Assembly: GCA_905178155.1 (NCBI GenBank)
Contig: CAJINV010000008.1
Coordinates: 1,798,001 to 1,862,000, forward strand
DNA length: 64,000 nt
Reading direction: 5' to 3'
From: Amoebophrya sp. A120
Taxonomy: Eukaryota > Protista > Dinoflagellata
Shown here: one piece after another, positions 3,991-50,800 of the stretch
Numbering within the stretch: position 1 is the first letter of the stretch
How the letters are laid out: every line of letters starts with the position of its first letter
Notes under the pieces: generated by a model
Told to the model about the DNA's origin: nothing
Seen by the model: only the letters and a program-made list of their open reading frames with translations
Databases searched by the model: none
Translations under genes and position numbers: made by a program

Positions 3991-6900
3991 CTATGAAAAA
4001 TTCGCCGTCCGAAGGCGATTGATACAGCAGGCTATTTCCAATTTTCGAGGTTTTGCGTAGAAACCCTGCGGGCGGTCCCACCTGCTCAGCACGTCCAGTG
4101 CCAACGGACTTTCGGCCAGCAAGCTGTCGAACTTGTCCAAGAGCTGGGAGAAAGAGCTGCTCTCGTCCACGATCTGCTTCTTGACTTTGTTACTATAGTC
4201 GTCGCCCAACAGCTGCAAAATATCCGTCAGCGCCTTGGCCTGCGACAGCTCGACCAGCTGCTCGACGTAGGTTAGCTCGACCTCTTCCTCTCCGTACTGA
4301 ATGCAGCGCAGGTTTCGGGCCGACGCCTTCCCGTCTGCCGCACAGTTTGTATTGTTGTTCAAACGCCGCGGACGGAGCGCCGGAAAGCTGCCTGTTAGTT
4401 TATTTTCGATGGGGGGGGTGAACAAAGCTAGTTGTAAAGATCACGACGATCGTTGCATCGCGTCGTAGCTGCAGCGGGAAGGGCAATGGCAAACAAAACT
4501 ACATACACATTTCGTTCGCTTAAAAGAACATAGTCAAAGTTGCAAGAAAGTCGAGCCCAGCCGTGCAGGCCAAAAAACAATGAAGCAAAGAACCTTCACT
4601 CCTCCCGTCCAGGGTGGAGTCCCAAAACTTGGTGGAGGTGACGATCTTTTTTGCCTCGGCCGTCACGTCTTTCGCGATGTAGTTTTCTAAACACAGCACC
4701 GTGTCGGCCTTTTCGAAGAAATCGCCGCTGGCGCCGACCACTAGGATTGTCGACACCCTCGTGGTTTCGAACAAGGGGACGACTTTGTCGATGAAGGGCT
4801 GGATCGGTTCCTTGTTGTTCGCGACCAGCATTTGCATGCGCTTGTCCCGAATCATAAAGTTCGTCGCGCACGTGTCCTCATCCACGAGCAAACAGGTCGC
4901 TCCGGCTTCCAACGCTTCGCTGATATTCGCCGCCTGAGACGTGGAGCCGGACGCGTCTTGCGTGGTGAAGTTGGTCGTCTTCGCACTGTCGTTCGCGGTG
5001 GTGTTGGGAAGATTTTTGATGAAGGGGGAAATGTCGGTGTTCAGAACGCACCGGCCGTCCTCCGACCTCAGTTTGAACGCATTTTCCTCCGTGACGACCA
5101 ATTCGCGCCCGTCGTTCGGAATTTTGTCGTACACGCCGGTTTGTAACGCTTGCAACAGAGTGGACTTCCCGTGGAAGCCCCCACCGACGATGAGCGTGAC
5201 GCCCTTCTTGATGCCCATGCCGCGGACTTTGCCCCGATGGGGGAGTTCCACGAAAAACGCGGAACTTTCCGGAGATTCGAAAGGGACCACTTTGGCTCGG
5301 TCCATCGGCCGGTCGTCGTTTCCGGCCTTGCGGGGCAGAATGGCAGAATCACCGACGAACGCGACCAGGTCGTTGTCTGCACACCAGGCACGGAGGTGCT
5401 GCTGGTCTTCGACGCATCTGGAATTTAAGTTCGTCGTTCAAACTGATCATGATCAACCATTGCTTTTACATAGTTTGCTACAGCATATGCGTTGAACTAT
5501 ACTCAATCGAAGCAAACAAGGCGACAAATCTCTTTATACTGTAGATGTTTCCGAAGTGCAGCGTGATCCAAGTTTTGAAATATCAGTGCTTTCTGCGCGG
5601 TTTTCACTAGTGCGTCAAACGCCGCCGCCGCCTTTTTGCCTTCTGCCGTCCGTCCATGCGCCGGCAAGGCCAGCGTCGCCCGCACCTCGCAGTACTCGCG
5701 CATCAGAACCACGCAGGACCGCTGCAGCACGAACTGCGACGGCCGGTCGACCTGGATGTCTCCCCCCTTACTGCTGCTCCAGCCCGCGTTCTTCTCCGCC
5801 ACCTCGGTCCAGTCCACTCCCGACCTATGGAAGTGTCAGTATCGAAATTGGCAAAATCGAAAAATTTGTTATGCACAAAATCGATGCCAGTTGAAGCCTC
5901 AGTTTCCAAGTGGCGCATGACAAATTTCGGAAGCACCCACATCCGGTCTGTCATGCTGTTTGGGCAAAGAAGACTGCTCCTGTCATGCTACTCTGGTAGC
6001 ACATTGTATACCCCTAAACAGGCTTACAATTGGTCTCATTTGCCTGCTCCCCAATAGTACAGGCCTTGCGTGCCCTACATTTTACGCATCACAAATTTTT
6101 CGACTTTGCCGATTTCGATCCCGACACTCCCATACGACCCGCCGCGAAGGTAGTCGTTCACCACCCGCTGCACAAAATCCGCGGCCGCGAGGTTTTTCAC
6201 TTTTGTCTTCTTGTCCTTGCGAAAGTTGTCCAGCAAAAACGCATCGGGCCACTTCGCGACCGCGGCCGGAATGCGCACCCGCACGTGGCTATGGAAGCGT
6301 CAGGTTTAAAATCGACAAAGTTGAAACGATTTGTCATGCATAAAGTGGATGCCAGTTGGAAGACCAATTTCCAAGCGGCGCATGCCAAATTTTTGGAGCA
6401 CCGGAATCCAATTTGTAATGCTGTTTGGGCACAGAGGACTGCTTTTGTCATGCTCCTTTAGTAGCTCTGTCCCAAACCCTAAATAGGCTCACAATCTGCC
6501 TCACTTGCCATCCCGGCAAGACAGGCACTTCATGCCTTGCATTTTATGCATGGCAAATCATTTCAACTTTGACGATTTCAATCCTGACGCTTCCATAGTG
6601 GCTCGGCGGTGCGTACGCGTCGCCCTGCACATGGTCCACGTACACGGTATATCAACTGTAAAAATGTCTGGGTCTGGAAGATTTTTTCTAGATTTGCCAT
6701 GCATATTTTCCATGACCCATGATGTCTGTGATGCATGCCGTAGCATCACAGATTTTTAGAGCGCTTTGTGATGCCTCTACAGCATGAGAAATGACCTCTC
6801 CGCGTAGCACAAACTGGAGTCCTCTTGCTGGTCATGTAATACAAATTTTTTCAGAATTCAGAGACAGCATCACAAGTTTAGAATGTTCCAGACCCAGACA

Positions 6901-7144
6901 CTTTTACAATCCGTACGGTGAACTCGTCCTCGGCCCACTCCCCCTTCAAATCCTTGTACGACCCGTAACCCGCGCCCTCCAGGTTGTTCCAGCAATACTT
7001 CTGCAATTCCGTTTGGGGATGCGTCAGCTTGGGCTTCTTCGCGTCCGGTTCCTCGTCCTGCTGTTTGCCCCCGCCTTTTGACTTAATGTGCTGCCACCAC
7101 GGGTAGCCGCCGCCTCCCTTTTTGCCGCCGCCGCCTTTACCCAT
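3991..7144 (-). CDS. Predicted ABC-class ATPase (ABC_ATPase / MRB1590-like family), multi-exon
   Basis: Walker A GGGFHGKS, Walker B LLVDEDTCATNFMIRD, DASGSTSQAA. N-terminal YVDHVQGDAYAPPSHVRV is reconstituted after removing three inserted elements (5826, 6290, 6650). Two conventional-looking introns near 4430-4594 and 5418-5538. Confidence 0.88.
5826..6134. mobile_element. Introner-like TIR element, family C (309 bp)
   Basis: TIR TATGGAAGTGTCAG.../...CCGACACTCCCATA. TSD CGACC at 5821-5825 and 6135-6139. Removal gives DYLRGGS|GVDWTEVAEK. Confidence 0.92.
6290..6597. mobile_element. Introner-like TIR element, family C (308 bp)
   Basis: About 55-bp TIR TATGGAAGCGTCAGG... TSD GTGGC at 6285-6289 and 6598-6602. 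Removal gives YAPPSH|VRVRIP. Confidence 0.93.
6650..6915. mobile_element. Introner-like TIR element, family B (266 bp)
   Basis: TIR core TGTCTGGGTCTGGAA / TTCCAGACCCAGACA. TSD CGGTA/CGGTG (1 mismatch). Removal gives DEFTV|YVDHVQGD. Confidence 0.9.
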
Positions 7145-8193
7145 GGCTAGATAGATCGCGCTACTTCTTCTGCTGTTCAAGTTGCGCAATGCGATGAAAA
7201 GAAAGCGAAAAGAGGATGACGATAATACTGCAAGAGTGAGAGCAACGTCTTTCTAGAGGAGGTCGCGTTCTCATTGAAGCTTATCCATATGTAACGAGGG
7301 ACAGTACTTTATGATGTGATGGCTTTCTCAGTTCACAGTGACGTTGTTGATGCTTGATGACCGTAGCTCAGTTCTCTGAAATGATGAGTGAAAACAAGTA
7401 ACGAGGGGAAGCCGAAACGGCGGCAGAGCAGCTTGTTGCGGATGCGATGGCGGTCGGGTGAGCAATACAAAAAGGAAAAAGAAAATGGAAATGCAAGGAT
7501 CCGAACATAAGCGAGAGCAGAAAAGGAGATCTTCAGAAAGGTCGTGATCTTCTTTCAACTGTCTGCAGCGTAGACTTTATTTCTGCTTCTGAAAATAGAA
7601 CCGCACCAACTACACCATCATGGCTGATGCGTTCATTTTGGGCGCTCTCGACGAACAGCCAGAACAAGAACTACAACCGCTGTTATTAATGATCCGAGAC
7701 GCAAAACTGCTCGTCCTGCTACAGGATCGTTTCTGTTTGAGTGCCCTTACTTGATGCGGACGAACATCAACACATCGGAGGAGCTGCAGAGCCGTGCAAT
7801 GAATCAAAAGGCCAGAGATGCTCTGACCCTGCTACCAGCACACCGCATTATCGCAGTTGTCGGATTCCATTCGACACTATCGTGTTGGAACTACGCGGCG
7901 AGTTCTTTCTCCTTCTACCCGAGTTCCAACATACTGCCGAAAGAACTCTTCAACGTATGAATTTCATCTTTTTGTTGCTCTTCCAATGACAACTGGTGGC
8001 CCAGCTCACTTTGGTTCATCTTCATCAATTCTGTACTTTTTAGTACCCCTTTACCACTTGTAGATGACTCCGGGTCAGCGTCATCGTTGAAATTATAAGT
8101 TTCTGACTTCTGCAAGTGGTACACTAGCCCTGCTGGAAAATAATGTTTTTCTGATTGTTTTTACGTCAAGCAATTGGATATATGCGTTATTTT

Positions 8194-10264
8194 TTACTTC
8201 GCCGGCAGCTTCTTCATGTCTGCGTCGACACTCAGATCCACCTCCCGGATCACGGGCATCTTCATTTCCGTGGCGTCTTCCGGCGTTGGCACGGCGTTCA
8301 AGGCCTGCGCGCCCATCTCCCATCGAAGCATATCACTGCTGTTCCACATGCGATGACCTGGGACGATGTGCAAATAATTGTAATTCTCTCTCGCGCATAG
8401 CGAAACTGCACTTGCGGTTGCGACCATGAAAATGGTCACGACCATAAAATGGTTGGAGTAAGTACATCATTTATCACCACCAGTAGTACCTCTCTCAAGC
8501 AACTTGATGTCAAAGACGTCGTCGACATCCGGATCCTTGGCGAAAATCTCCTTGTGATCCTTGTAACTTTCGTCCACCCAGGAATTCCCGTACGTCACGC
8601 GAACCAGCATGAAGATCTGGTCGCACTCACCGCAACGGTACAGAAATCCCTCGCGGCAGTGGAAGCTGATTAAGTATTGTTGACGTCGGTTATGGTTCGT
8701 CCATGTCGATGTCCTCAACAATCAAATTGCTCGTGCGAAAAAAATAGATGTTGACGTACTAGCTAGCAAACGCGAAATTAAAAACACAAACACATCAAGA
8801 TGAGCAAAAGTAACGATACAACATCGCGTCGTGTTCGTTATCACCAGTGCCGCCCGTACAACACACCTGGCGGATATCCGAAAGGGAGGGCACTATTACC
8901 GGGTTCTCGACAGTCCCGAAAGGCCCGATCATGGGCGAGCTTTTCAAGTATTCATACAATTCGATGATCCCCATGTGGTGTTCCAAGACGTCGGAAGAGT
9001 GTGAAAGGAAAACTTAGTATTTGTCAACTTGCTTGTCCAACCACGTGGCTGTGGCATGCAACACAAAATAGGAACGCAAGACAAAGACTCGCTCGTTTTT
9101 TTTGCCATAAAACCAATGCATTCATTCTTTTTCTCGCTGTGCGCTCGAGGAATGACAGAGGATCCTGGTGCACGGCAGCTCCGAGCTGCGCACCAGCAGA
9201 AAAAGAAATAGACAACTCGCATGACAACAGCACGCCTACGCGGTTGAAGACACTGCTGAAGAAAAATCACAGACATTGTTTTCCGTACCACTACTGGCAT
9301 GCCCATATCGTACGCTAGCTGCTTGTACCTGTTGTAGAAAAAGTGTGACAAAGAAAATCCATATTCATCGCCAGCAACTTCTTGCTTCGTCGCCAGCAAC
9401 TTCTCGATTTCCGTCGAGTATCTATTGGTTTCACGACATGCAAACGCAGGTCACCCGCAGCATCAGCAAGAGTTACTTGATACGTGAGCGTGACGAGCCT
9501 CTCCGGGTGCATGATTGTGGATTCCTTCCGAATCCGCCAGTACCAGTAGTGGTCCAGAAAGTCAAACTCCCGCTTGCTCGGATCCTTCTATGCAGTGAAA
9601 ATAGGTGGTTGGTTCAGATCTGGAAGACGAAGACTGGGTAATGCTTGGCTAGCATTATACACAGTCGATTCTGTAATCACGCATGCTGGTGCTGCGCAGA
9701 CGAGGGTCGACTGTTTTTTATTATTCTTTGTCAAGATGTATTCGAAAAACCCGAGTTCTCGTGCACCGGAGCTAGAAAACTCGTCCTGCGTAGCTGTGTA
9801 GTGCTCGGCCTGCTTGCCATTTACAGGATGACGTTGCAAATCCCTAGTCTTCAGACGAACCCGTCGTTTTTCCGTGTGGATAGCTTTAAAATCTCCTTGA
9901 TATCAATGGGCATGGAATGCGGCGGCAGCGTAAAATCATCCACCGCGGGTGCGTGCCAGTGTCGGTAGTGCCGAATCTGCTGTTGTGCGCCTGGTCGTAA
10001 AAGTGGTGATCTGCAAGAACTCCGGTTCGCCCTTGGATTGTTGCGGAGCCGCAACGCATTTCCGTTGTGATTCGGATTGTTCCAGTGCCCCCCTAGTATC
10101 TTCCCGCCCGCCGCAGACCCAACTGCCACATGCGTCCTCGAGGTGGCCGGAACAAACGCAGCCCTTGGGTTGCTTTGCACCGGTGACGCTGATGCGCTGG
10201 ACCAGAAACGCCGAAAGGTCGTGCACAGCGATCCCGAGCGAGGTACCACAGCAGAGGCGACCAT
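8194..10264 (-). CDS. COX5B: Cytochrome c oxidase subunit 5b (myzozoan type), multi-exon, with N-terminal mitochondrial-targeting-like peptide
   Basis: [22 protein letters not shown] followed by [20 protein letters not shown] (Zn-binding Cys motif). Arg/Ser-rich N-terminus. Several GT-AG introns. Confidence 0.85.
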
Positions 10265-12316
10265 CACTGAGGACGGTCAGAGAAGTAGAGAAAATTCGGT
10301 AGCTGTGAGTAATACTAGGGAGAGCGACCGCTCTGGCCAAAATCAAAAGCTGCACTTCCTCTACTACCCACTCGGGTTACTTACGCGCGATTCCTCGTTT
10401 GTTTCGTTACGCCCGTGGTTCTTGCTGCCGTCGTCTTCCTTGCACTGGTGATCTACTTCCCCATGCCGAAAAGCAATAAACACGCGTCCTCCACATTTCA
10501 AGACTTTCAAACAACTACGTTTGGGGCAAAAATAACAATTTTTGGACAAGTACCGTGTAAAAGTTCAATGCGAGTACACGGTTGCAGGAGGCGCGCTCGT
10601 GCACGACCCGAAACAGAAACAATGCGCCATTTCAGACTGGGAGTCGTTCTGGCACAATGGCCAAAAAAGCACAAAGACACACACACAACTTCATATTCTC
10701 CAAGGCTTGTTGGTACTAGTGCTCCTTCTCTCCTTCGCACTCGACAAATAGAAACGCAAAGATCCTCCCTCACCGTTAGAAGCTGCACTTCAACCTGTGA
10801 TGCTGAAAGAAGATGGATGGAATTCAACGGCCGAAAAGAAGCAGAATTTCTCTTGTATTATCTACTGTTGAAGCAATACTATATGTAACGACGATGTTTT
10901 GGCTGCACTGCGGCAATCCCGCGCGTGTGAAGAATAAAACACAACGTACCAAATTCTCCGGACTACACTACCCGTCACAATGTCGCGACCGGTCGTAGGC
11001 TATTAATATGTTGGTGGCCACTGCTATATTCTTCAAGACCATCACATCTCTTGTTTTTTCGAAACAAAAACGTACGAGGAATCCATCTGCTGAAGACCGT
11101 ATCAGGGAAGCACGCCACCTAGTGAAGACCGTCTCCGCCGGCAACACTCACTCCCATCTCATTTCTAGCCCAGATTTGTAGAGAGAGAAGCCAGTGCTCA
11201 CTGCAGCGACAAGAAGCAATCCCGCTGTTGCCAAGAACGAAACAAGGAAATGCTCTTCACTGCAGTGAACTTCGCCTCATAGCTTCAAAAAAAGAAAGAC
11301 CTTAACGAACCTACCCGACTATCGAAACGTAGAAAAATATTTTCCAAAATTCAAAGTGAAAGAAGTGCCAGCTTCTTTTTTACAGGTTCATCCCACCCGT
11401 GGTCCACAATCTGCTGTTCGTTGAGCAGCTGCCTCTTCTCTTGTCTAAGTGTCTATCTTTTAATACTGTGTGCACACTAATAATCCTATGCATTGTAAAA
11501 AAATATTCTCGCGACCCATCTTAGGACAAGCCGTGGGTTAAAAAAGTATGTGGCTTTGTTCCAGTTTGAGACATGTGTCTCTTTCTGACTTCATCTTCGC
11601 ATGGGAAACGTTTCTCTACTGCTTCTCTTCTTCATGTTGATTTTTGACAAGTACATTCTATTTGATTCATTATGGCAACCAGGCACGGTCGCGGATGAAA
11701 ATTATAAACTACACCTCCCGCGAGAGGTCTCTTCTATCGGGGGCGAAAATTTGTGTGCTAGTCTGGATCTCCCTACGCTACACAAGATAATTAAACCTGG
11801 TGACCTACCTGCGGCGCCAACAAGATGCACGCGGTCTATCTCTTGCAAAAGATGAATCTTACAAGGCGAGGACGGCGCACTGTCATTGCTGACGTCCATC
11901 ATCGGTGGTCTTCGTTCTTGCAGCTGATGCCTGTCTGCGTGTGCGCGCGGCGTCAAAGAAACTGCTCTCTATCTCTTCACTATATTACTTTATTTCTTTC
12001 AACAAAATCACATCTGCTGCCAAAACTAAATCTGTTCGGAGCCTCGGAGGTGATGGCAAGAACTACGAACACAACACTACATCGATACATATCTGCCTTC
12101 CTACGAATACAGCACGATGACAGAATCTCCTGCACATCAGCGAGAAAAAACGCGAAAGCTTTTTCAAAAAAACAGAACTCTACCGTATTTTGTAGAGCAA
12201 ATTTATTCACGAATTTTTGAAATACTGTAAAAAACTACGAAGGCCCTACGCAGGTGTGGATCCACATCTAGTTACTCATGACATAAAGCATCCTACAAAT
12301 CCGAGTCTGTCAAACC

Positions 12317-15300
12317 TCAGTTGTGTGCTGGTACAGAGCCCGTACCGCACTGGTGCATCATCATCGTCCCACTATTCCCGGCGCCCCCCGCGCCGGCCGC
12401 TAGTATCAAAGAGAAAAATCCCCCCTCCCCATATCAAACAGGCACGTTTCCGAAAATTTGCGTTGCTGATTTGAAGTCACAAATAACGCTTGTCTTGCAA
12501 GAGGACAAGGGCAGAAGCTTCCGCCCCATTATGGAAGCGATTTGTCATGCTGTTGGGCCTAAAGGAAAGCCGTTTGCCATGCTGAACAACTAGACCCATA
12601 CGCCCCTATCCAGCCTGGGGATCTGGCCGCAGTGCCTCCTCGCAATACAAACCCGATTTGTGTACACAAATCCAGCATCAGAAATTCCGTTTTGATATGG
12701 GGAGGGGGGATTTTTCCTCTCAATAGCTAGCGACGAGGAGTTGCTGCTGCTGCTCATTCCCGGCGAACTGGTCTATCGTAAGGAAAAACGTCCCCACCCC
12801 AGAGTTGTCATGCAAATGTGCAATGACAGGAAAATTTGTGCTGCACAGCTCCATGAGGGGCATTTCCAATCAGGTTTTGGATTTTGTAATGCTGTAAACA
12901 GGATGAGAAAACGGCTTTCTCATGCGGCTTCCCTTGCCAGCCAGCACTACACCGCAGAGGCAAACTTGTCATGCACAGGTCGCAAAACTTGGAGATTTGT
13001 GTTGCTAGATTCCCAACTTGACTATGGGGTGGGGACGTTTTTGCTTCGGATATGGTCAGATTCGTTGTTACCGTGCGGAAGTAACCATGTGACTGCAGCT
13101 CGCTCATCGCTGGACGCTTGTGCGGATTGTACTGAAAGATTTGCTGCTGTTATCCAATAAAAGAAGCGGAGTGTATAGTCTGTGTTTGTGTTGGTTGAAC
13201 ACACAGAGGACTGTTACTTATTGACAATTGCCATTTTCATCTTGAGTGCACCTCGCTACGTCCAATAGGAGACTTCTGCACGAATCGCACCGCAACGCGC
13301 TCACTCTGCTCGCACTCTGTATCTTCACTGGCGCTGTCAGTGTAGGACTGTCGCAAACTTCTAACACCCTCTTTTTTCTTGAATAGCAGGAGATCATAAA
13401 GCAGCGGTAAATCCTCAGGAGCGACCGCAGGGGTATTCGGGCGCGCGTTGTGCAAGTGAAATCGTGAGTCAAGCTGATTGTAGTACTACTGGGTTGTAAC
13501 CGATTCTTGATTCGAATCTAAATCTACCAAGCAACAGAAATAAGGAAACAATTTTCTTTTGCGCATGACAAGTGCGCGTACCTGAGAAGATACCAACGCT
13601 AGCACACCCCACACTAAACCATGGAGCAATCGAAATGACTCACAAGACAAACAAAGTTGATGTCCTCAGCATGCAGAGCTTCAATAGACCCGATACCACA
13701 CTGTACTTGACCCGAATAGGAATCTGCCATGCATACGCGCTAAGCCATTCTTCCACCGGTTTCGCGACGAATTTTGGATACTCCGGTGAGAAATAGGGCA
13801 ACTGCGTCACACCGGTCCACTCGCAAAAGGCTGGAGAACCTGCGGCACGGTAAAAGTTGTATGGTTCAATCGAAGAACTTCGGCTTTCATCAGAATGAAT
13901 GCTGCTCGTTCAGAACGTTCCACCTCATGCATCGCTCTGCGTCGTGATCAGGGATGACCACGACCACGACGCGTCAAAGGCGACATTTCTACAGTGGAGC
14001 ATGCACCATGAACCTCAATACAGCCTCGTAGGTATGCTAGTAATACACTACGCGTGCAGCTATGGATGTAGCAATGAAAAATCGGAAAAAGTATCCTGTA
14101 CCGATGACACGGAAAATCTGGAAAATCGTGCCAATCTCACTGTCCCCCACGAACACCGGTGCCCCGTCGTTGGCGAGCTCCCCAAACACGCAGCCGAAGG
14201 ACCAGAGATCGATGCTGACCGTGTACTTTTTTTCGCCAAGCAAAATCTCGGGTGCACGGTACCACAGCGTCACCACCTCGTGCGTGTAGTTGCGGACCGG
14301 CGCCTGGGTCGTGTGCAAATTGATTTCTTATAAGACAGCGACTCATCACTTACTGATAGACCAAAATAACGGCTTGGAACAAGTAGAGCACGCACTTGAT
14401 AGCAGCATGATCCTAAGCCGCTGTACCGAAAAAGCGCGAGCAAGGCCGAAATCGGCGATCTTGACGTTCTGCATGTCCCAACTGATCAGGACGTTCTGCG
14501 GCTTGATGTCCCGATGAATGCGGCTATGGAAAGGAAATATCGCACAGTCTTAGACATATTATTCAGGAGAGACGTAATTGACGCCCATCTTCAGGTACCA
14601 AGATTTTTGGCGCCGCATATGTACATGGTTGGAGCTCTTCGACTACATCTGCGACGGCGGGTAACAAGGAAGGAATAAACGTAGTCATAGCATGATAATC
14701 TTTAAGACGCCGTCGATATCACGAGCTGAAGAGAATTATCACTCGAAGCAGTTGATAGATTCCCGATGCGTCCCGTAGCGAAAAACTCGTACGAAATTCC
14801 TCTCTGATACATGCGGTGCTTGTGGAGGTGCGCCAGCCCTATGCGTTGTAGTGGTTGTTCTTGCTTTGTTCTTGTTAGCGATCAGGGTAGCAAAACATAC
14901 TAGTACATAATCTAAAAAGTGCAGACATTGAGGGTGACTGATTTTCATGCCGCGAACACCTGCTTATCGCTTTCACTTTTTTTTCTCGGGTTGTAATAGA
15001 TACCGTCGAGCATCATTTTCCCAACTCGTTTCAGTGGTTCCCCGCACATTTTCGGCGCCGACTGACTCTTCATGAACTGCCTCAGGTCCGCATCCATGAA
15101 CTCAAAAACCAAGTGCAAAAAACCCCCGTTGCTTTTCACGTCGGAATGCACGTCCTTGAGCTTGATGATGTTCTCGTGGTTGGCAACCTCGTGCAGAAAA
15201 CACACCTCCCGCAGCGCTGTGGACGGGATTCCCTCGTCATCTTCTGACGAGAATGCAATACCTGACATCAAGAACGCATGGTGTTCTGCTTCTGTTTGTG

Positions 15301-15939
15301 CTACGACCCGTCGGAGAATAAACTTTCGTGATGCCCGAACATCATAGAAAAAATGTTTATGTTGTTGTGGAAGATATTGACACTCGTGCTGGGAATCACA
15401 TCAGAGCTCTGGAACTGTGTCTCTTGCGTAAGCATGCAAAAGAAATGTAAAAAAGTAAAAAAGCACGAGGCTGTAGATACGTTTCAGCGCGACGAATTCC
15501 TTTGTCTGCAAATCTTGTGCCTTGTACACGGTTCCGAAGGTGCCTTCGCCGAGCTTGTCGAGCCGCTGGTAGAAGCTTTCCAGCGCATCTATCCTGCGCA
15601 AAAACGTCCCCACCCCAGAGGTGTAATGCAAATCTGCTTGCCAAAAAAGTTTGCCATGCGGGGCGCCATGAGAGGCATTTTCTACTCGTGTTTTGAGATT
15701 TATGATGCTATAATCCGCATGATATACTAGATCTGTGCTGCTGCTGAACTACCTAAACAGGATCACACTACGAGGACAAACTTGTCATGCCAAACGAGCA
15801 AAGCTGGCTGATTTGTCTAGCAGATTTCCCATCTTGATTCTGCTGTGGGGACGTTTTTGCAAATGATAGCATCCGCCCCATAGTTTAGCGACAACTGGTC
15901 GCCCCCGCCCTCGAACAAGGTTCCCACCGCCCGCGCCAT
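12317..15939 (-). CDS. Cyclin-dependent kinase (cdc2-related), multi-exon
   Basis: [93 protein letters not shown]. The ATG at 15939 and stop at 12317 are obtained after removing three inserted elements. Confidence 0.92.
12404..12725. mobile_element. Introner-like TIR element, family D (322 bp); interior partly similar to family C
   Basis: About 35-bp TIR TAT....GAAAAATCCCCCCTCCCCATATCAAA. TSD GCTAG at 12399-12403 and 12726-12730. Removal gives SSSLA|AGAGG...HN*. Confidence 0.88.
12774..13052. mobile_element. Introner-like TIR element, family A (279 bp)
   Basis: TIR TATC......AAAAACGTCCCCACCCCA. TSD TGGTC at 12769-12773 and 13053-13057. Removal gives TTNLTS|SPGM. Opposite orientation to the copies at 18629 and 48418. 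Confidence 0.92.
15590..15868. mobile_element. Introner-like TIR element, family A (279 bp)
   Basis: TSD GCATC at 15585-15589 and 15869-15873. Removal gives MARAVG...NYGADA|[17 protein letters not shown]. Confidence 0.93.
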
Positions 15940-17081
15940 TCACGATCCTCTATTCTATTAGTGCATCATCAGGCAAGCCTGCTTTGGTTTGGCAAAAGCC
16001 TCGTCATTCTTGTTGCGGATCAGACTTTTGTTTTCTGTCATTTCGTTCTGATCTGACACTCAACTTCTGCCTCTCCAGCCGGCATTCTCCGAAGTAGAAC
16101 ACTCTTCGTGCACTCAGCCTCAGGCAGCCCCACCTGTTGCCCTCTTTGCACGAGCTCCAGTTTCAACGCAATTGCAAATAGCTTCATACTTATAAGGAAG
16201 CAGCTACTGAAGAACAATCAATGCCTACGCAGCATTGCCGAACAAGAAGAGATGAACGCGTGGTGGCCCTGCTACTTATAATGCGCGCTCACAAAGAGAA
16301 AGACGCATGCCGCGCAGTTTTCTCGGTGCCAAGCAGAGAGACAGGCGACAACGAGCTGTGCTTATGATTTCTCGCGAAACATATTTTTTGTCTGAATTCT
16401 AGATGTTCAAGATCCACGTCAAGAACTGACAGAGTTCTGTGGGCGGTTTTTATTGTCCTTTATTCTCTAGTGGGGACGATAGCTCTCGGTAACAAAGGGG
16501 CATTGGCGTGGGTTCGCCTGGATCGATTTGAGCGCACCGTGGACATTCCTTCCTCAGTAACAAGAACGAAGTTCACAAGGCATGTAGGAACTAAAAAAGG
16601 AGTTCCAGAGGGAGAATACACAGAGACGAAGCAAATGTGCAGTTCAGGTGAAGTCGGTGGAGAGTGGGAGCTGCTTGTGCTAGTGTAAAAAAGCCGTGGT
16701 AAAAACTAAAACTTTGCATTGCCGTATATTCCGCTGATAACCCTATTGCCAACAAAGCTCGACACTCGTGATGCAGGTGTCTTAGTCTTGATCGACTCGT
16801 AAATTCGAAACTAGATAGACGAAATGTCTTTTACTGAGAGAAAAAAGAATTGCAGACTGATGCCATTACACCGGTTCTGCAGCTGGGATGAGACTGCAAT
16901 TCCTTTTCCGAGAAGAGTGAGGCCGTAGAAAGCGAAGCAGACACGACTGCACCTAGGCAAAAAGAGGACTACAAGAACAGCACCAGTAGCTGCCCCGCAC
17001 GCGCGGAACAATGAATCCGAAGGCCTTCTAAGAAGCACAATAGCGGAACGAAATCGACGAAAACGATCGATCGCACGATTT

Positions 17082-24850: not shown

Positions 24851-25314
24851 TCTGCTTTTTTCTATACTCGGTCAGGTCATCTCCGTCTCACTTTGCAAAA
24901 CAAACCACTCCATCCTGATCTTAGCACTTTCTTTCACGCATAGACGCCAAAGACCAGGGCCTGCTGTTACTGCGTTAATTGGTTTACGTGCAGAGAAAAA
25001 ACTCATGGTCTCAACTAGTAGCCCAAGAAAAAGTGCAAGCCGTAGCTTCTTCTTCTGCGTCGAACCCGGCAAGCTCCGCTATGCAAGAGAAAACCGCAAA
25101 ACGAGGGCAATAATTTCGCAGAAAAATTCTTTTTAGATATTAACTTGCTAACAAACACAATGAAAATTTGCAACGAACTGCAGCAATAGAAGTATCTATA
25201 ACTCCTATTGCTGAGCTGCGCGAGTTAAAACTTTGCGACGGGGAGGAAAATCGCCCACGCCGGAAATTTTTTGACAATTTTGAAACTTTCCAAAGCTGTC
25301 GCGATTTGCGAAAT

Positions 25315-25750: not shown

Positions 25751-25754
25751 TTTG

Positions 25755-37724: not shown

Positions 37725-40700
37725 AACGCTACTTGTCTCCCGGTCATTGTAAAGGGTCAGCCAGTTACTTTATGGAATGTAAACTCTTCACAATCACCAG
37801 TGTCAGAGCCAGCACGTACTGAATCACGCCATTCTGTAGGCGGCAGCGGTCATGATGTCTGCGCCGCGGTGTCTGTGTACGTTCACAGACATCAAACTTA
37901 ATCACGGAACGAGCTCTCCTCGGGGACGCACACGTGATGGATGTAGCATACCAGAGGTCCGTCAAATATTTATCTCCTGGTTTACTTTGCGACAAGATCT
38001 GAATATGAATGTGTTACTGTATGAGAGTCTAAGTGACTATGACCAACGAGACACAGATCGCCACGTATGATTCATTGCGCTGGCTCAAAAGCGTGAAGCT
38101 TCCTTGACTTTCATCATGATGTTTCTTCAAGTGCATAATCCCAGGAAAAGTAAGCCACTGCAGACCAAAATTTTGTTGCACTGCTTCAAGCTCTCTACGA
38201 ACGTGGACCGCCTCGGCGGAAAAGTAGTTTTCTTCATCTTGAGCCTCCGTAGAATCTCTACTGACGCACCTGTTTTTGTTCGAATCAAAAGTCGCAGCGT
38301 GGAGGCCCCTTCGCGTGAGTCATTTTGACAGAACTTCGCAAAAGAAAAGAAAACGTGGTCTCGTCACAAACAGGCAACTGTTGATACGAAATCGAAATCA
38401 ATCACCTTCCAGTATCCAGTTCTTATGTGAAAACTCAAATTTCACAAAAACCTTATATCGTGTCTGCGCCGCTGCACCACCCGCGCTCCTGCTACAACTG
38501 ATTTTTACGTCGCCGTCACCCACTCGTCTCGTCTGAGGTGGAAGAATGTTCCTGTAGCTGCTGATTCGCGTTTTGTTTGATCTCTTTCGTTCGAGTTTGT
38601 CTCGCTTTGGTGGTTTCCTCAGAAAAAAAATGATGCTGGTCGTCAAAAATCGTCCTCTTACTCTTGTTATTGTTTTCAGAGAGATTACAAAGAACTGCCT
38701 GTCACGGCTTTATCTTCTCCTCATACAACTGTTGTAGTCCCAGAAAAAATGGAAAAAAAGACTGCATAAAACTAAAAGGCAAACATAAATTCGTTTAGAA
38801 ATTGTAAAATAGCCTTGCGAAAAGACGTTGACAAAAGATTCAATGCTGGATAAATTTGTGAAAACTGTTATTGCTGTCGATCAGAAGTAAAAACCTGGGG
38901 GGTTCGACCAGTCCACAGCACAGAAAACACAAACGAAATCCTGGTGGGGGGGAAGACGAGATTCAATTGATTCAACAATGCTCTTCTTTCAATAAAAAGC
39001 ATCAAGAAAATGCCTCGCACGAACAAAGCCATACAGCATCGGTGAAATACATGCACCTACATAAACCAAAGGGAAACGAGAGGAGTCTTTGTAATAGCCG
39101 TATGAAATGGCTGCTCTCAAATCGACAGATCTCGCAAGAAAGACGCGCTGAGCAAAATTGTACGACGAGCTAGCACCGAGACGCACTTACGATTCAAGGA
39201 CGCCACCGACGGCACTTTGTCGGACTTTATGAGCCGAGTTTCCGTTTTTAAGAACCGAAAACAGATGAGGGAAACACAGTGTCCTCTCGTACTCTTTGTC
39301 TCTATTTTTATTTATAGCAGTGCATACAATGGAAAAGTACGGCAGTCACGAACGGGCGACCGACATTGTCAAGCCAACAACTATGCACCGGGAAGTAAGT
39401 GGCCGCAGGAGCAGGAGGAATACCGAACTATTAAACTACGTACAGCGCAGCACGAAGTCCACAACCGATGCTGCAGATTCCACAACGAGCGGCCGTCAAG
39501 CGAACGATACGTCGTGAAGGAGGACCGAACAATGTACATGTACTAGAGACGGAATACTTATACAAGTTTGCAAACCGAAGGGCATGTTCTAGGTAGAAGA
39601 AGTGGACACCGAATCGTTTAAGGACTCACTACAATGCATCTATCAGAACAAATGCGTGGTTTGCACGTTGTCGCATTTCATGGGTTTTCTCGCAGCAGAA
39701 AGAGAACACTATCGCTGTTGGTCCTTGCGATGAGCACGAGAAATGTTGCACATAGACATATCGGCCGCCTGTCGATGAATATACTACATCATCAGCATTT
39801 TTTTATTTTGGTTTCCCAACAATACCGAAATGGACGAAACAAATCCGTTTTACTGCTGTATGTGTTTCTTCCTAATTTTTTTTATACTGAACCGAAGGAA
39901 AACTTAAGAGTTCAACACACTCCGGAGGAACGGAGACGCTGCACGACTGTGGTTCTCATTTTGTGTAGGACCGCTCGCAACACCACTGCTCGCACTGCGA
40001 CTGTTTGCCGAAGCAAATCGCCCGGCCTCGCCCGCGTATCCAGTCTTGTTTGAAGTGATGTGTAGTTTCGACGTACCAGGACTAACTTTCAGCGCGAAGT
40101 CAGTACCGTAGACCGAAAGGTCCGTAATATCTCGATCGACCTCTGCGTGTTGTACCTCTCCAGTTCTCAGCTCGCGATTTCTATCTTCTTCTGTTTCCCC
40201 ATGATGGCCATGCTCTCGTGGCAGTGATCTGTTACTGCTTTGCTGCAGCTGCTCGTCGTGCTCCGCCATGAGGGACAGCGAAAAGTCCACCGGCGAGGAC
40301 ACCAACACTTCTCGCGCGCCTCGTATGCGCTTCCAAACGAAGAGGAACCGCATCGGCAAGATCAGCAGGCGCAGGAAAAACACCGGCAAAGCCAACGCTG
40401 GATAATCAAAGGGAAAGACGTCTGTTGAGTTGTAACCGCCTCCTTGTTTTTCTTGTCGTTTCTTTTCTGTGGATGAAACTTCTCCATAAGTACACAGATG
40501 GAAAAAAATGGACGAGTGTGTACCGTTTCGTTCGGTCCATCGTATACTTGCAAGTCAATTTATCAAGCTGCATACAACGCAAGGAGGACAGCGGGATGGC
40601 AACAGATGATTTTTCTCTTTTCATACGTGTCGACGCAGGCCCAGAACAGGTTTAGGAGAGTATCACATAGAAAAAAATCCTCTTATCCAGTGGTGACGCT

Positions 40701-41260
40701 AACGCCATAAATCGTATTTCGGAAAATGCAAATCGTATTCGCGCTCAGACTGTCGCGTCTTTTATTCCGTGCAGGAAAGCGAAGACATGCTCTCTTTTGA
40801 ACTATCCCATAAGGGTACCATAGTAGTATCACTTACTCTCAGCTATCTCTGTGGTAAGACAGATTTATTTCCAGTTCATAAGGTACCACCTCCGCGGTTC
40901 CTGCGTCGAAGTTGTGGAGCACTGAAACGCCGTAGAGTATCGACAAAAAGCAGCAGCACGCGATGAAAAAATCCCGCCGCGTGTGTGGTGGGTCTAAGGC
41001 GAAGTAGAGAGAGAAAGACGCCTGCGCACACAGGAGAAAGACCAACAAGGATGTGTCGAATCGAAAATTTTCGCTACCAGAGTACTTATGTGCCTGATCT
41101 TGGACGCCACGAAAAACCTTACGCTCTTTCGGATGCTCGAGAGTTTGAGTTCGTCCACGGAAGTGCTATGCGCTCGCGCAATACAGCTGTTTCATTCTTC
41201 AGCATACATTCATTACTGCAACGTGAAGTTGTAGACAACTATGGTGCTCTGCTAGCGCCT

Positions 41261-43327: not shown

Positions 43328-46300
43328 TCAGCAGAAACAGCAGCATTTACGACAGCACATTGCCCTGCTGCTCCCCTGTCCGCCGCCTGCACTCCCACTC
43401 CGAGTCTGCTTGTACGTCGTTAAAGTTTTGCACTTTTTGTTCGGCGCACTTGCTTTAGAATTTACTTCTTTCTCGGCACTTCTCCTCCCAGGGCGTTTCT
43501 TCCCACTGTCGCTGTTTCCTGCGTTCATCCCAAGGGCGACAAGAGCGTCGTTCGACGGTGCCACCACATCCGCCTCATTCAGCATGTTAAAGACGAAACA
43601 GCTGTTGGGGCACTGTTGCACGGCCTGCAAGATCTCCGCGTAGCCGTCTTGAGTCTCTTGAGGGAAAATCTTGAGTATGTCGTGCCGCCTGTACAAGCAT
43701 CTTGCTCGCGAGTGCGATTGCAATTCTGAAATCGATCCGAATCAATAAACCGAAATATCAACTACAAAAACATGTTTCGTGCGATCATTGGCTGCGATAA
43801 ACGAAACGCGGCGCGACATACATCCCTTTTTCACCACTTCGATAAAATTTCGTGACTCCCGATCTGCACATACGTTTCGACAACTTCGGCCTCGAATCGC
43901 GTTAGAATTTTCAAAAAGAGCGTTTCTAGTGAATCATACAGCGACAGCGCCTCCCCGGACGCCTCAAACGCGTCCACTAGTCGCTGCCGTTCCTGAATCC
44001 AAGCTGGGGCAAAAAAACGCGTGAACGGATTCTTTTGCTGCTGCCGGGACGCTGTTGCTGATGGACTGTTCATGTTCTTCATCATCCCACCTTGTCCCCG
44101 CGATGGAGTAGCTACCTGCGACTCCTGCTGCTGCAGGAGAGTGTTGTCGACGCTGAAGCTCAGCCGACCCAAGCGGTGCGTATCGCCGACGGACACTGAC
44201 TTCGTCAAAAAGCTGTGGTAGCGCACGTGCACCTTCTTCACGGTCTCCGGGTTGCCGGCGAAGTCCAGCAAAACCGCGCCTTGTTGCGTGGGGGGCAACT
44301 TGTGCAAAAACCGGTAGTCGTCGTACAGGAGAACCTCGGAACTCACGGCGTTGGGTCGGGTTTTTCCCTTTGGCTTTGGGAAATTCGCCTTGAGGAATCG
44401 CTCCACGAAGCGGTAGTTCGCGCCCGAAGTTTCGTATGAACAGGAGGAGCGGAAAAGACACACAAGAGCTTGACGAGGTAGGTGTCGCATCAGCATCATG
44501 GGAAATGATCTCTTGGAATGTTGCGCTGAGAAGTTGCCTACCTACGATTCTACCTATAGTCAACTCTGACTCTCCAAGCCTGGATAGAGCTACGGAACTA
44601 TCGACGACGCGATGTCCGATTTTTGTATAGCACAACTCTTGCGTCATTTTTTGTCTCCGTATCATACTACTGCAATGATTTTCAGTGGGCGCACCTGACC
44701 GGCGCCTCCGCCACGTGTGCCGCCGCCGAATAGAGGACGCCGAGCTTCTAACGGTAGCGAGGCTGTGAAGTAGCGGTGGGTTTCTTCAGTATGGTGGTAG
44801 TCCTGGTGCACGACCAAGTTTATTGTTGAAAGGTCAATTGCAGCTGCAAAGATGAATTCAAAAACATACAAAAGAAGTACCTTCCCGCTTCCTCTGTTCC
44901 TGCAATACCATGAGAAAGCAGAGTGCTGACTTGCAGCTTGCGCTCGTGATGACCAGCGTGTCCGCGTCGAAAAAGTCGTGCCAGCGCAGCCAGTCCTCGA
45001 GGAAGAAAGCCGTCGGGAACAAGGGCTGCAGCAGCATCAACAAGTCCTCCGTCGCCCGCGAGTACAGGTTCGGCCATGTCCCGGGATCGCACACCCGGTA
45101 CGACCGGTAAACTAGTGGCAAAACGTGCCGGCGCGACGGATGCTCGTCAATAACCAACTCCGAGCCCCGCTTGAAAGTGAGCCCTGCAGTCGACTTCCGG
45201 TTGTGGTAAAGAGGACCACCAAACGCTGCACTTCGGCGAGAAGCGACAGAACCCTGGTCGTGGGCATTCGTCGTGTGCTGGTGGAAGGGGTTCTCGTGCA
45301 CAGCTCTTGACATGACCGTGCTGGGCGATTGCATCGAATTTGCCACTGCAATCCGCCCGCTGGGACTACTGTTCTTCAGCATAGTCTCCCCGTGCTGTAA
45401 CAGCTGCTCCTGTTGCAGCATGAAAAAGTACTGCCTGCGCCACGAGGAGCCCGGAGACTGCTGCTGGTCGGCACCCGGATCGAGTTCCAACAAGGTCCGC
45501 TGCCGACCATTCAGATATTCAGTGCGAACATTCCAGATTGATACGTAGGCCACAGCGCCACGCTTTTTGGCCACAGTGGCTCGGTAACATAGTATTTAAA
45601 ACCCTACGTGATCATGAACAACGACGGGGACGGCGATTGCGATTCGCGTTCGCGCTTGCATGACATTCATTCCGTATTTGGAGACCCTGCTGCGCAGGAA
45701 TATCTAAAACTTCCGCACCGGATATTGTTTGCGCATGATCTTGGTAATGCCCAACCGGCACGATTGCCGAGGGTTGGTGTGGCTGGTGCTTGCCTCGTAC
45801 GCCATTCCCTCCTGTGGACGGCGACAAGGGAAAGTTGTGACGGTTCTCGGCAAATACAAGCTCAGGAACGACAACCAGGCTTGAGTATGAACGGAAGTAA
45901 AAAAGTTTGCCACAGGGCAGGGGACGGGGTCCTCGTGACTGTTGGTTTACGGGCTTCACTCTTTCTTCGAATCCTGTACTACTTGTACTTGGTGGAGCCG
46001 CGCCCATCTAGGATACAAAACTCGCGCCGCTGTGGTCGAGGTTGAATTCTTTCTATGTGTCCTGTAAGCAGGAGCGATCCGTACACACATCGGGAAGAAA
46101 GAGGGAGATGTCCCGCCCTGAGACAGTGCAACTACATTATTTCTACTTGATACAGACCGACTCCGCTTCATCGCCACATTGTCCGCCAACTCTTCCGGCT
46201 CTAATTCAATGGTAAACATGTCTGTACTTGTCATGTGTATCAGCAATTTGGCAGCGCAAGCGACCTGAGGACAAACCCCTTTCCACGCATGACACTTCGC

Positions 46301-47846: not shown

Positions 47847-50800
47847 TCACGCTGCCGCGCTGATCTTGGAAAGGATTTCCCGGGTTTCGCTCTTCAGGTT
47901 TTCTGTCGCAAGCATTTCCGTAATGGTTTTCTGCACCTTCGTTGCAAACTCTTCGGTGATCTTGGTCTTGCACTCAAACGCCCGCGAGAGTCGTGCGGCG
48001 ACCTGCCCGTTGCCGTAGTTGTCCAGCGCGAGGATCTGTTTCTTCACAAAATCCCTACCTTGATCGCTGTGGAAGAGCTTGATGTTTCGAATCGCCGAGC
48101 CGACCACTGACCGAAATCGGTTCGGATTGGAAACGGTAAACTCCGGGTGCTTCGTCAAAGCCGCAACCTGGGGAATGGCATAGGTTGTTCAATCACAATC
48201 TGAATCTTCGTTTTTCAACTGCATCAAACATTTCAGTTTATTTTTCCAGTCACTTCACTAAGCAGGTCCAAGTGGAGGTGGAGGTGCCCAACAAGAATAA
48301 ACAGAGACATTATGCAATAACTGCCCGTGCTTAAGCATGCAATTGGCGTACCTGATCAAAATTGCTTGAGAACGCCGCCTGCAAGGCGAACCACTTGTCC
48401 ATCACTGGACCGGAGCCTATCCTGAGTAAAAACGTACCCACACCAGAGTCAGGATGAGGATTTTGCAACACAAACCTAGGAGCTTTGTGAGTCACGCATG
48501 ACAAGTTTCAGTCCGTAAGGTAGTGCAACTTAGCAAGGAAAGCCGCATCACAAATCGACCTGCTGATCCTGTTCACAGCATCACAAATTCCAAAACACGA
48601 TTGAAAATGCCTGTCATGGGGATGCGCATTACAAGTCTTCCTGTCTTTGCAAATCTGCATGACAACTCTGGTGTGGGTACGTTTTTACTCAGGATAGAGC
48701 CGGATTTTTTCGCAAACTCGAAGAAGTCCGCCTGTGCCTTGGCCTGTTTGTTCTGCTCCACCAGGACCCGGAAGGCGGCAACGCGCTCCGTCATGGTCTG
48801 CGCAGCGAAGTACTGCTTCTCCGCCAGCTCTGGGTCTTGCAAAAGACCAAGCAGCGCGTTCTTCAGCAATCGGCTTCCGATCGCCTCCTGGGAAAGCGAG
48901 AAGCCGCTTGTCGTTGTGGCCTTCAGCGTGGCTTGATACCTGGTAGGGAGCAGAGGTTTTATTGCAAAATCCAATGAAAGAATCATGAATATAGGAACGC
49001 GAATTTTCTTCGCTTTGTTACTCTGCTAGGTAAGTAAGTACTTACTTCGCATTCGCAAGATTTTTCTTTCCATGTGGCCGCTCTGTGGTGCAGTAGACAA
49101 AAATGCATAGAAGATGCACTACCACTGCAAGTGCTCGTGTTGCGATACAAAAACATTCCGAGAAGTACAAGCTGTACAGAATGGATGCTGCCAAGTGCAA
49201 CTTACAGCTATTCGAGATCAAGAATCAAGTATTTCTGCATTATACCTTTGCTTAATCTCCTTTCCCAATTTCTGCACGATCTTTTCCCGCACCAGCTCGA
49301 CGCTTTTGTCCAGCAGGATTGGATATGAAATGCAAAAGTGTCTGGGTCTGGAAGATTCTGAGAGTTGGCATGCACGTTTAGCATGAGCCGTGATGTTTGT
49401 GATGCAGGCCCTAGCATGACAGATTTTCTGAGGACTTCTTGATGCCTATCCTGCATGAGAAATGTCCTCTCCACGTGGCAAAAACCTGACTCCTATTGCT
49501 TGTCATGCAACACATCTTTTTTTAGAATCCAAAAATAGCATCACAAGTTGCATCCTTCGAGACCCAGACATATTTGCAATGCATATCGGATCCACCTTCG
49601 ACCCGTAGCCCACCATGAGTCCGCTCACATCCGGCAATGCCAGTGTCTTCCCGAGCGCCAGCGCGGAAGAGGATTTGTCGTCCAGCAAAAATTTTATCGA
49701 CTGGAGCAGGTAGTCAAGTTTCTCCGTGACGCTGCTTTTGTTTTTCTCGTCCAGATAGGCTGCCTTCCCCTGGCTGTTCTCGTACACGTCGTAGATGACT
49801 TTGGTGCAGAGTGCGTCGAACGCGTTGTACTTGCAGTACATGTCCGTGTCGAACGCCGCCAGGGAGGACAACTCCTTCACCGTGTAATCGTAGTAGAGCT
49901 TGATGGGCGCGCCGAAACCACGATTCAAAGACGGCACCACATCATCAAACTCAACGCCGGGGGGGAGCTGTGTGTTAGTGCTTGATATGCACACTCTTGC
50001 TTTAAGATTAAGGTCTTTTTTCGCTACTTATCGTGCCGGAACTTCCAACCATGAATGAATCTCCACCGGAAAAGACGTGCCAAGAAGCCGATAAAGAAAC
50101 AAAAAGAATAAGATCAAATATCCTAAACCCTAAGACCCTCAAAACCCTATCGACGCTGGTGTCGGACAGGGGCGGAAACAGGACGTAGATCGTAGGGAAG
50201 AAGATGTGGCGGAGGGGCGTAGGACGGCCTGATCAGAGAAAGCGCGCAAAACGCATGTTCTGAACCTAAAAATACTATGTGAATATACCCAACCCGAAAA
50301 AGATAATACGACACCGGAAGGTGTCGCGCCCCAATCCCAAAAAATTACTGCTTGGTGCCAGTAGGGCCCAGGGAAAAACAAAAGGCAAACAAGAGGAAGG
50401 CAAGGTAAAATCTACTTTCAAAAAGCGCTAGTAAGCCTTGTGCTCTGATCCGTCCGGGCGTGCACTCCCATCTGGTTCTAAAGCTTCAGCAGTGCTGAGA
50501 GCGCTCCGACCCTAAACCTCAAGGCAAGCCAAGAGATCTACGTACGTATGCGCACGAGCAAGGCAGGAATATTGCCTGATGTGGGCGAATATTCCTAACT
50601 AAAATCAAAAACGACACTCGTACCGGAGGTACACCTCAACGGAATCGATACGAGCTACAAATCGAAAAAGAATAAGAAAGACTGTGTTCCAACACGGCAT
50701 AATAAGTCATAAGTACCTCAACGACCACCGAGCCGGTTTTGTCCGTGAGGTGAAACACCTCCAAGTTCGCGTCCCCGGCGGGGTAGATCTGCTTGCCCGT

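Follow-up and report, generated by a model that had tools for sequence, protein, structure and literature searches.

Coding exons broken by transposon-like insertions in Amoebophrya sp. A120 raise the question of how, and at exactly which bases, the insertions are cut out of the message. We addressed this in a window of 64,000 nucleotides (the whole stretch of DNA analysed), in which three exons match proteins bearing the name Amoebophrya sp. A120 at 100% identity. The host genes all lie on the minus strand and encode an ABC_ATPase (PF09818) family protein (3991–7144), a cyclin-dependent-kinase-like protein (12279–15939; A120 protein P0002), a protein with ankyrin repeats and a weak match to C2 (17082–28708; P0007, 1393 aa) and the M1 aminopeptidase PepN (47847–52849; P0012, 1070 aa). 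Introners with inverted and direct repeats are known from this same strain (Farhat et al. 2021, PMC7789003), and the initial annotation cites them as reported in Amoebophrya; the accessible text of that paper describes TAT-starting inverted repeats, 3–5-nt direct repeats and RNA-seq-supported non-canonical introns with a mean length of about 240 nt. Both the elements and the fact that they are removed at non-canonical ends are thus in print, and the finding as first written is a rediscovery. About 60% of A120 introns are non-canonical, and the published description, in its accessible part, gives no defined cut sites (PMC7789003).

All eleven insertions of the initial annotation, 261–322 bp long with terminal inverted repeats (TIRs), are present, and its four families were recovered by all-against-all BLAST, with 70–89% identity within families. 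Intron coordinates given here in brackets are predictions from the fixed register argued for below. Family A comprises 12774–13052 (12770–13053, AT..CC), 15590–15868 in the CDK N-terminus (15586–15869, CT..TG), 18629–18907 in the C2 region (18625–18908, CT..GG) and 48418–48696 in PepN (48414–48697, CT..CT). Family B comprises 6650–6915 (6646–6916, GT..CC), 19263–19524 (19259–19525, CT..GC), 20655–20915 in an ankyrin repeat (20651–20916, GT..TG) and 49324–49585 in PepN (49320–49586, AT..CA). Family C comprises 5826–6134 (5822–6135, GT..TC) and 6290–6597 (6286–6598, CT..CA), and family D, without a relative in the window by BLAST, is 12404–12725 (12400–12726, CT..AG). This last element sits in the low-complexity tail of the kinase, not in a conserved motif of the kind that the initial annotation often named at the insertions. 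Both ends of all eleven carry inverted repeats with a TAT start, except that one arm of 6650, its start on the gene strand, reads TAC. A target site duplication (TSD) of 5 bp had been claimed throughout; the direct repeats at the element borders are perfect 5-mers in nine cases and match at 4/5 in 6650 and 49324. A run of at least three A follows TAT and seven further bases on at least one arm in 9/11 elements, family C having none. When TAY..RTA pairs were sought at a TIR match of at least 14/20 and a TSD match of at least 4/5, 18 of 20 shuffled windows gave none and two gave one, against at least 11 in the real window. A relaxed scan (at least 12/20 TIR matches) was at chance level, with 135–185 matches per shuffle, and was discarded, as was a scan match at 3778–4024, which is coding sequence of the ATPase gene.

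The insertions have the traits of MITEs or other non-autonomous TIR DNA transposons (TIRs, a TSD of fixed length, short and highly repeated), and they are used in both orientations. An estimated 590 or so stretches carry the family B TIR in a metagenome collection, and in the DNA-like run X6 coverage of the element bins exceeds that of unique DNA by hundreds to thousands of times, a depth that does not equate to copy number. Among elements collected from a second assembly, 161/201 have a 5-bp TSD and 0/201 a 6-bp TSD, and their target 5-mers vary broadly. The TA..TA termini resemble those of IS3EU/GingerRoot, an integrase-like DDE group whose TSD is usually 6 bp according to the accessible text of PMC10045372; membership of IS3EU was rejected on TSD length. 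No transposase was seen, and 7/7 tested ORFs of the roughly 3-kb intron at 25076–28059 had no Pfam match. Integrase-like ORFs have been reported between the TIRs of one A120 introner family (PMC12130899, accessible part). The elements may owe their spread to a DDE transposase or an integrase that acts in trans.

The initial annotation proposed that each element leaves together with one TSD. This is borne out for five of the eleven (12404, 15590, 18629, 19263 and 20655) by spliced contigs of two runs, X1 and X4, which cover the kinase and ankyrin genes, are presumed to be RNA (the guess of the tool) and also omit the canonical introns. In a raw-read run, X10, the 16 partly fitting reads do not cover the locus. 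At 12404, 15590, 18629 and 20655 the contig pieces end flush with one TSD: X1 record 3 and X4 record 8 restart at 12398, X1 record 4 reaches 15869, and X1 record 4 and X4 record 9 restart at 18623 and at 20649. The distances between pieces equal those expected if the element and 5 nt are deleted, namely 108 nt beside 15590 and, across 19263, 230 nt (X1) and 475 nt (X4). None of the five has a GT/GC-AG reading. Annotated A120 proteins fit the same removal for seven elements, four of them among the contig-supported five: P0007 maps accordingly at 18629, 19263 and 20655, P0002 maps across 12774 with a gap of 284 nt (the element plus 5), and P0012 agrees at 48418 and 49324, where P0013 is also colinear. 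In the ATPase gene homologues align without a gap at 6290 (120/124) and 6650 (102/121), and weakly, across a farther context, at 5826 (18/124). A model in which the intron is the element with one TSD base on either side, adding one codon and giving GT..AG where the TSD is G...G, was rejected, because the contig gaps equal element+5 and such a TSD occurs in only 16/103 oriented second-assembly elements.

It is very improbable that the elements are not spliced at all, being retained in transcripts of dead copies or cut out of the DNA in some members of the population, whose element-free templates would then yield the clean transcripts. For 6/11 elements (5826, 6290, 6650, 12774, 48418 and 49324) no junction was seen in X1 or X4, and element sequence does occur in RNA-like runs. 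Against this, the contigs that skip elements are identical to the window exons (with 0 other letters among the pieces listed) whereas the listed pieces of X6 continue into element sequence; aged copies are skipped even where TIRs and TSDs have decayed; the host proteins are intact, with 76% identity to the A25 orthologue; and the published introns are RNA-seq-supported, as far as the accessible text of PMC7789003 goes.

The count of eleven proved incomplete: in the genes for the kinase and the ankyrin-repeat protein it overlooked older copies, at least 15 of them; the 15 decayed introns described here are all on the minus strand. Four of them allow a single placement: 14521–14810 (GT..CG) in the CDK catalytic loop HRIIHRD, placed by P0002 and the orthologues P0003 and P0004, with a whole-intron fold no better than shuffles (z −0.86); 19014–19210 (AT..TC), placed by P0007, with P0008 identical across the site and a length of 197 nt that fits the contig sum; 22671–22886 (GT..TC), with TIRs in phase at 15/20 and P0008 gap-free across the site; and the introner-like 24769–25045 (CT..GC), placed by annotation in a poorly conserved region. 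At 20096–20363 (GT..GG), X1 record 4 joins 20362 to 20093, skipping 268 nt, and at 23676–23880 (TT..TG) both P0007 and P0008 read YFDYE. Annotated-protein mapping places 13147–13386 (CT..AG), 13445–13736 (GT..GC), 21042–21360 (GT..CG), 21904–22078 (CT..CG), 22312–22605 (CT..CG), 23230–23457 (GT..AC, its TSD still perfect), 23982–24151 (GT..AC) and 28435–28682 (GT..TA), the elements from 21042 to 24151 resting on annotated proteins rather than on base-level RNA junctions. The last, at 25076–28059, is 2984 nt long; its ends (CT..GG) are those of an aged introner, and tandem arrays lie inside it.

These aged copies indicate where the cuts probably fall, which is what is new here, although the figures of PMC7789003 may already hint at a register. 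In three genes we mapped 33 introns, 11 canonical and 22 without a GT-AG reading, having dropped one of 34, the P0002 intron 12373–12725, because the contigs contradict that annotation at 12404. All 22 non-canonical introns allow one shared register, N|TAY...AYN NNNN|, in which the cut likely falls 1 base before the left TIR and 4 after the right one (position 4), as judged from annotated proteins (the source of most of the evidence), orthologues and one contig joint. A cut at position 4 suits 22/22 introns, the next best being position 5 with 16 and position 3 with 15; the joint at 20096–20363 excludes positions 0–3, and position 5 is excluded at 23676–23880. The four single-placement introns allow position 4 only, and all four start N-TAY. 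Orthologues confirm the residues at 14521–14810, 19014–19210 and 23676–23880.

Slid through the TSD on the gene strand, the junction can read GT-AG in one element (5826) and GC-AG in one other (48418), as the initial annotation stated, and neither in the remaining nine; AT-AC can be placed in 0/11 and minor snRNAs are reported absent (PMC7789003), so the elements are not U12-type, and with 2/11 they are not canonical U2 introns as a class. It is unlikely, in our estimation, that there is no single register and that the spliceosome simply takes whichever near-canonical dinucleotides the TSD offers, the apparent rule being an artefact of annotation and placement. Perfect TSDs do conceal the true cut, a GT/GC-AG option on either strand is available to 20/161 second-assembly elements with a perfect TSD, and the accessible text of PMC7789003 terms the sites variable, with several of the top motifs ending in AG, AC, AA or AT. 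Position 1, which both canonical readings need, is however compatible with only 10/22 introns, and the single-placement introns all lie at position 4. At 22671–22886, reading by eye, one could also splice in frame at GT..AG with the loss of one residue, but the A25 orthologue is gap-free to the non-canonical form.

Within the register, T at +2, A at +3 and A at −7 are invariant in 22/22 introns whereas the terminal base at either end varies freely; −6 and −5 are altered in five introns and +4 in four. The +2/+3 invariance is partly circular, as placements were first picked by an N-TAY start, from which the four single-placement introns are exempt. Elements of the second assembly point the same way: among 10 orientable ones with altered ends, +2/+3 is changed in 0 and the mirror positions −5/−6 in 7 (p 0.016), five of the 15 (L021, L027, L031, L077 and L078) having been left out because a negative coding score makes their orientation unreliable; on the strand called for them, L031, L027 and L021 would oppose the asymmetry. 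The orientation model, trained partly on the host genes of the window, called the minus strand correctly for 9/10 genuine window elements detected and erred at 12404. All 11 canonical introns start with GT, nine of them with GTAT or GTAC, so that TAY agrees with the donor that the genome itself uses. Pairing of the ends (z below −2) is seen in 11/11 young and 11/15 aged introns and in 0/11 canonical ones, and the element at 18629 folds with z −5.46.

Independence from canonical splice dinucleotides, the conclusion of the initial annotation, is supported, 9/11 elements of the window, and on either strand all but 20/161 perfect-TSD elements of the second assembly, having no GT/GC-AG reading; it was right, if largely in print already (PMC7789003, accessible part). 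The route is not signal-free, as the cut sites appear fixed relative to the TIR, and this together with the retained +2 T and +3 A favours a relaxed spliceosome over a wholly separate pathway. Our main reading, to which we give a probability of roughly 55%, is that the insertions are A120 introners whose removal by a relaxed spliceosome likely cuts 1 base before the left and 4 after the right repeat. The intron would then begin with the final base of the upstream TSD, run through the element and end after the fourth base of the downstream TSD, leaving exactly one 5-mer and an unchanged protein. The TAT end may supply a donor-like U at +2 and A at +3, a terminal stem joining the ends may take over positioning from G(+1) and a 3′ AG, and the A at −7, whose invariance is suggestive, could serve as the branch point of a 2′-5′ lariat. 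We advance more tentatively a stricter version, in which the A120 spliceosome needs neither G(+1) nor a 3′ AG, reads N|UAY, branches at the adenosine 7 nt from the 3′ end within the TIR and makes its cut at a set distance of six bases further downstream. With TAT..ATA being a palindrome and the cut measured, not read, insertion at almost any 5-mer, in either orientation, would give a perfect intron, and the transposon would be invisible to the proteome. One oriented element, L002, has G at −7, which speaks against an essential branch A, and bases before −7 show no consistent branch consensus.

We consider it doubtful, if less so than the lack of any register, that the same register is read by a non-spliceosomal or specialised structure-guided nuclease and ligase, which would recognise the terminal stem with its 1-nt 5′ and 4-nt 3′ overhangs, as proposed likewise for euglenid nonconventional introns, and release circles or linear RNA. 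The free first and last bases and the end pairing that persists in aged but not in canonical introns would suit such an activity. So would the failure to detect U1 in A120 (PMC7789003, accessible part) and the release of euglenid TIR/TSD introns as circles (PMC11282704, accessible part). For the spliceosome speaks the report of nearly all spliceosomal proteins and of U2, U4, U5 and U6 in A120 (PMC7789003, accessible part). The asymmetric decay of the TIR ends (0 against 7) is not something that pure stem recognition predicts; four aged introns, including 21042–21360, are annotated as removed without significant end pairing; and four introns put up with a C at +4 facing the A at −7, with no compensating change.

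The following comparisons rest on the accessible parts of the papers cited. The window elements share with the published A120 introners the organism (by protein identity), repeated families, non-canonical ends and the TAT start, with the seven variable bases and A-run in nine of the eleven on at least one arm and no A-run in family C; the Fig. S19 legend shows 5-bp direct repeats, and all nine top non-canonical motifs start N-T (PMC7789003). The introners of Polarella/Symbiodinium and Aureococcus are likewise TIR transposons of the non-autonomous kind, and splicing them out leaves a single TSD; some function in either orientation, and one class takes both splice sites from the TSD (10.1101/2020.10.14.339549). 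Their donors are still G(T/C/A) and their acceptors AG, so that they need particular targets, whereas the target 5-mers here are variable and neither G(+1) nor a 3′ AG seems to be needed. Euglenid nonconventional introns have TIR-paired ends, TSD-like repeats and non-canonical junctions too, but belong to a different lineage and pair +4..6 with −8..−6 rather than +2 with −5. Excision as circles is described for them; what is common is the terminal stem, which here is predicted (PMC11282704). In Fritillaria borealis the spliceosome also handles transposon-derived non-GT/AG introns genome-wide, there with AG..AN as the prevailing motif and with U1 conserved, in contrast to the variable terminal bases and undetected U1 of A120 (PMC13326754; PMC7789003).

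A single register with asymmetric conservation of +2/+3 and −7 would reduce the varied dinucleotides to one rule and would correct gene annotation. It also makes exact predictions, the junction base at mismatched TSDs and a branch at −7, that would tell a relaxed spliceosome from a new pathway. Drift towards GT with age is not significant, G at +1 being found in 8/15 aged introns against 3/11 young ones (p 0.25) and 41/103 oriented second-assembly elements (p 0.40). Separately, AG occurs at TSD positions 3–4 in 12 of these 103 elements, against 4 for the mirror image, a suggestive difference of which no use was made here.

Nine of the eleven elements described in the initial annotation were recovered by a de novo search of the window for inverted ends bordered by perfect 5-bp direct repeats. 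The 5-bp target duplication (TSD) ascribed to all eleven is indeed perfect in nine, the copies differing by one mismatch in the elements starting at 6650 and 49324. In 20 shuffles of the window, TAY..RTA pairs with a terminal inverted repeat (TIR) match of at least 14/20 and a TSD match of at least 4/5 were absent from 18 and occurred once in each of the other two. The grouping into four families (A: 12774, 15590, 18629 and 48418; B: 6650, 19263, 20655 and 49324; C: 5826 and 6290; D: 12404) was reproduced, with 70–89% identity within families. All four host genes lie on the minus strand, and members of families A and B are found inserted in either direction with respect to them. BLAST within the window also located a family C relic with one recognisable TIR (57379–57497). 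A candidate aged introner lies at 40661–40880 (TIR 14/20, TSD decayed), where the minus-strand frame stays open once the element and 5 nt are deleted.

The kinase, ankyrin/C2 and PepN exons match, at 100% identity, proteins named Amoebophrya sp. A120, and the elements are an instance of the introners published for this organism. Farhat et al., 2021 (PMC7789003) report that more than 60% of RNA-seq-supported A120 introns are non-canonical, and describe 1,954 families that comprise 29,850 repeated introns, with 3–5-nt direct repeats and inverted repeats that start with TAT followed by seven variable bases and an A-run. In the same study the nine predominant non-canonical motifs (Table S4) all start N-T, no U1 snRNA was detected, and the mechanism of removal was left open. 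Both the elements and the fact that they are spliced non-canonically are thus already known; the proposed fixed cut register is a useful mechanistic refinement. Neither this register nor the -7 A proposal below was found in the literature searched, in which Roy et al. was represented by part of a preprint.

Removal of each element with one TSD was compared with contig matches over window positions 4500–21500, which hold nine of the eleven elements. Contigs of two runs (X1 and X4), which are assembled sequences rather than raw reads and whose RNA nature is only a guess, agree with the window exons letter for letter, leaving out canonical introns and elements alike. In both runs contig pieces resume at 12398, 18623 and 20649, directly beyond one TSD. 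Record 4 of X1 extends to 15869, and its unlisted stretch of 108 nt is that expected for removal of element 15590 plus 5 nt; for 18629 plus 19263 the unlisted stretches (230 nt in X1, 475 nt in X4) likewise equal expectation. Among the contig matches listed, such removal fits five of nine elements; 5826, 6290, 6650 and 12774 are not among these. Listed pieces from a DNA-like run (X6) continue into elements, which are hence present in DNA-like data. Annotated A120 proteins map with a gap of element plus 5 nt at 12774, 48418 and 49324, and the PepN homologue P0013 is colinear at the latter two. For the PF09818 ATPase gene, where 127 of 150 homologous proteins gave a match, gap-free alignments back removal of 6650 (102/121) and 6290 (120/124), and only weakly that of 5826 (18/124), which lies in a variable loop. 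At the family D element the publicly annotated kinase protein P0002 uses another acceptor (intron 12373–12725) than the X1 and X4 contigs, probably a mis-annotation. One 5277-nt X1 contig (15003–20649) covers both the ankyrin gene and, downstream of it on the same strand, the kinase gene; either overlapping UTRs or read-through may explain this.

Because perfect TSDs hide the cut, we used decayed TSDs to locate it. Three annotated proteins, once mapped, yielded 34 introns; one was dropped since contigs contradicted it, and the 33 kept comprise 11 GT-AG introns and 22 others (seven of the eleven elements plus 15 older copies whose repeats have decayed). Cut positions were numbered through the TSD, position 4 denoting a start one base before TAY and an end four bases after the 3' TIR. 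All 22 are compatible with position 4, against 16 with position 5, 15 with position 3 and 10 with position 1, in a comparison that leans on the annotation and on placements picked by their TAY start; four of the 22 allow a single placement, in each case with an N-TAY start. The clearest case for position 4 is 14521–14810, where the two TSD copies differ in their last base (G upstream, C downstream): HRIIHRD, found in A120 and two orthologues, requires TSD bases 1–4 to be those of the upstream copy and base 5 that of the downstream one. YFDYE, shared by A120 and A25, rules out position 5 at 23676–23880, and a contig joint excludes positions 0–3 at 20096–20363. The ankyrin gene includes an intron of 2984 nt (25076–28059) whose ends, those of an aged introner, follow the same register. 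It contains 17-bp and shorter tandem arrays and internal inverted repeats, with no Pfam match in the seven ORFs tested; such long cargo apparently does not block removal.

Sliding the junctions confirmed that only 5826 can be read as GT-AG and only 48418 as GC-AG. In the fixed register the ends of the eleven elements become GT-CC, CT-CA, GT-TC, CT-AG, AT-CC, CT-TG, CT-GG, CT-GC, GT-TG, CT-CT and AT-CA, so both canonical readings are probably coincidences. A scan of a second assembly with the family B TIR gave 153 loci (L001–L153) with 201 elements in all; the TSD is a perfect 5-mer in 161 of them and 6 bp long in none. Only 20 of these 161 allow, on either strand, a GT-AG or GC-AG reading, and each base is found at each TSD position; canonical dinucleotides are therefore not required, as had been proposed. 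These loci are dense in TAT..ATA elements, with up to five per 3–4 kb and lengths of about 150 to 480 bp.

T at +2 and A at both +3 and -7 are invariant across the 22 introns, while -6/-5 differ in five and +4 in four. Altered ends were found in 15 of 204 second-assembly elements, ten of them orientable; none of the ten is changed at +2/+3 and seven are changed at the mirror positions -5/-6 (p 0.016), a count that leaves out five elements of unreliable orientation, three of which would oppose the pattern. Position +4 is changed in two and -7 in one. Nine of the 11 canonical introns begin GTAT or GTAC. Significant end-to-end pairing is present in 11/11 young, 11/15 aged and 0/11 canonical introns; the terminal stem thus appears still to matter, although descent alone could account for the pairing. 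Drift towards GT in aged versus young elements was not significant.

We favour, at a probability of roughly 0.55, a relaxed spliceosome that is positioned by the stem and cuts in a fixed register. Such splicing would proceed through a lariat, with the -7 A as candidate branch point. Structure-guided excision of the euglenid kind would also suit the paired ends and is a real but lesser possibility; the asymmetry between +2/+3 and -5/-6 is expected of a spliceosome donor, whereas a purely symmetrical hairpin reading would not yield it. A register that varies between elements would be compatible with the perfect TSDs, which hide the cut, but the four introns with a single placement all fall at position 4, and we consider it unlikely. 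That the elements are not spliced at all is very improbable given the contigs that skip them.

Many GT-AG introns of the window are flanked by 4–9-nt direct repeats (e.g. 15262–15480, 17671–18042, 24288–24516 and 48940–49245), and three carry ATG or CTA at -7..-5. Some of those so bordered may be fully canonised old introners, although end pairing is absent in them.

A transposase would lie behind the spread of the elements. Their TA..TA ends recall IS3EU/GingerRoot as described in PMC10045372, but the TSD length given there does not match. PMC12130899 describes, among the A120 introners, one family whose TIRs enclose integrase-like ORFs, a possible kind of mobiliser. Three long ORFs at 53623–62795 are without a Pfam match; elsewhere in the window, ORFs at 2594–3520 and 44861–45595 match CbiX (PF01903) and DUF2855 (PF11017), respectively.
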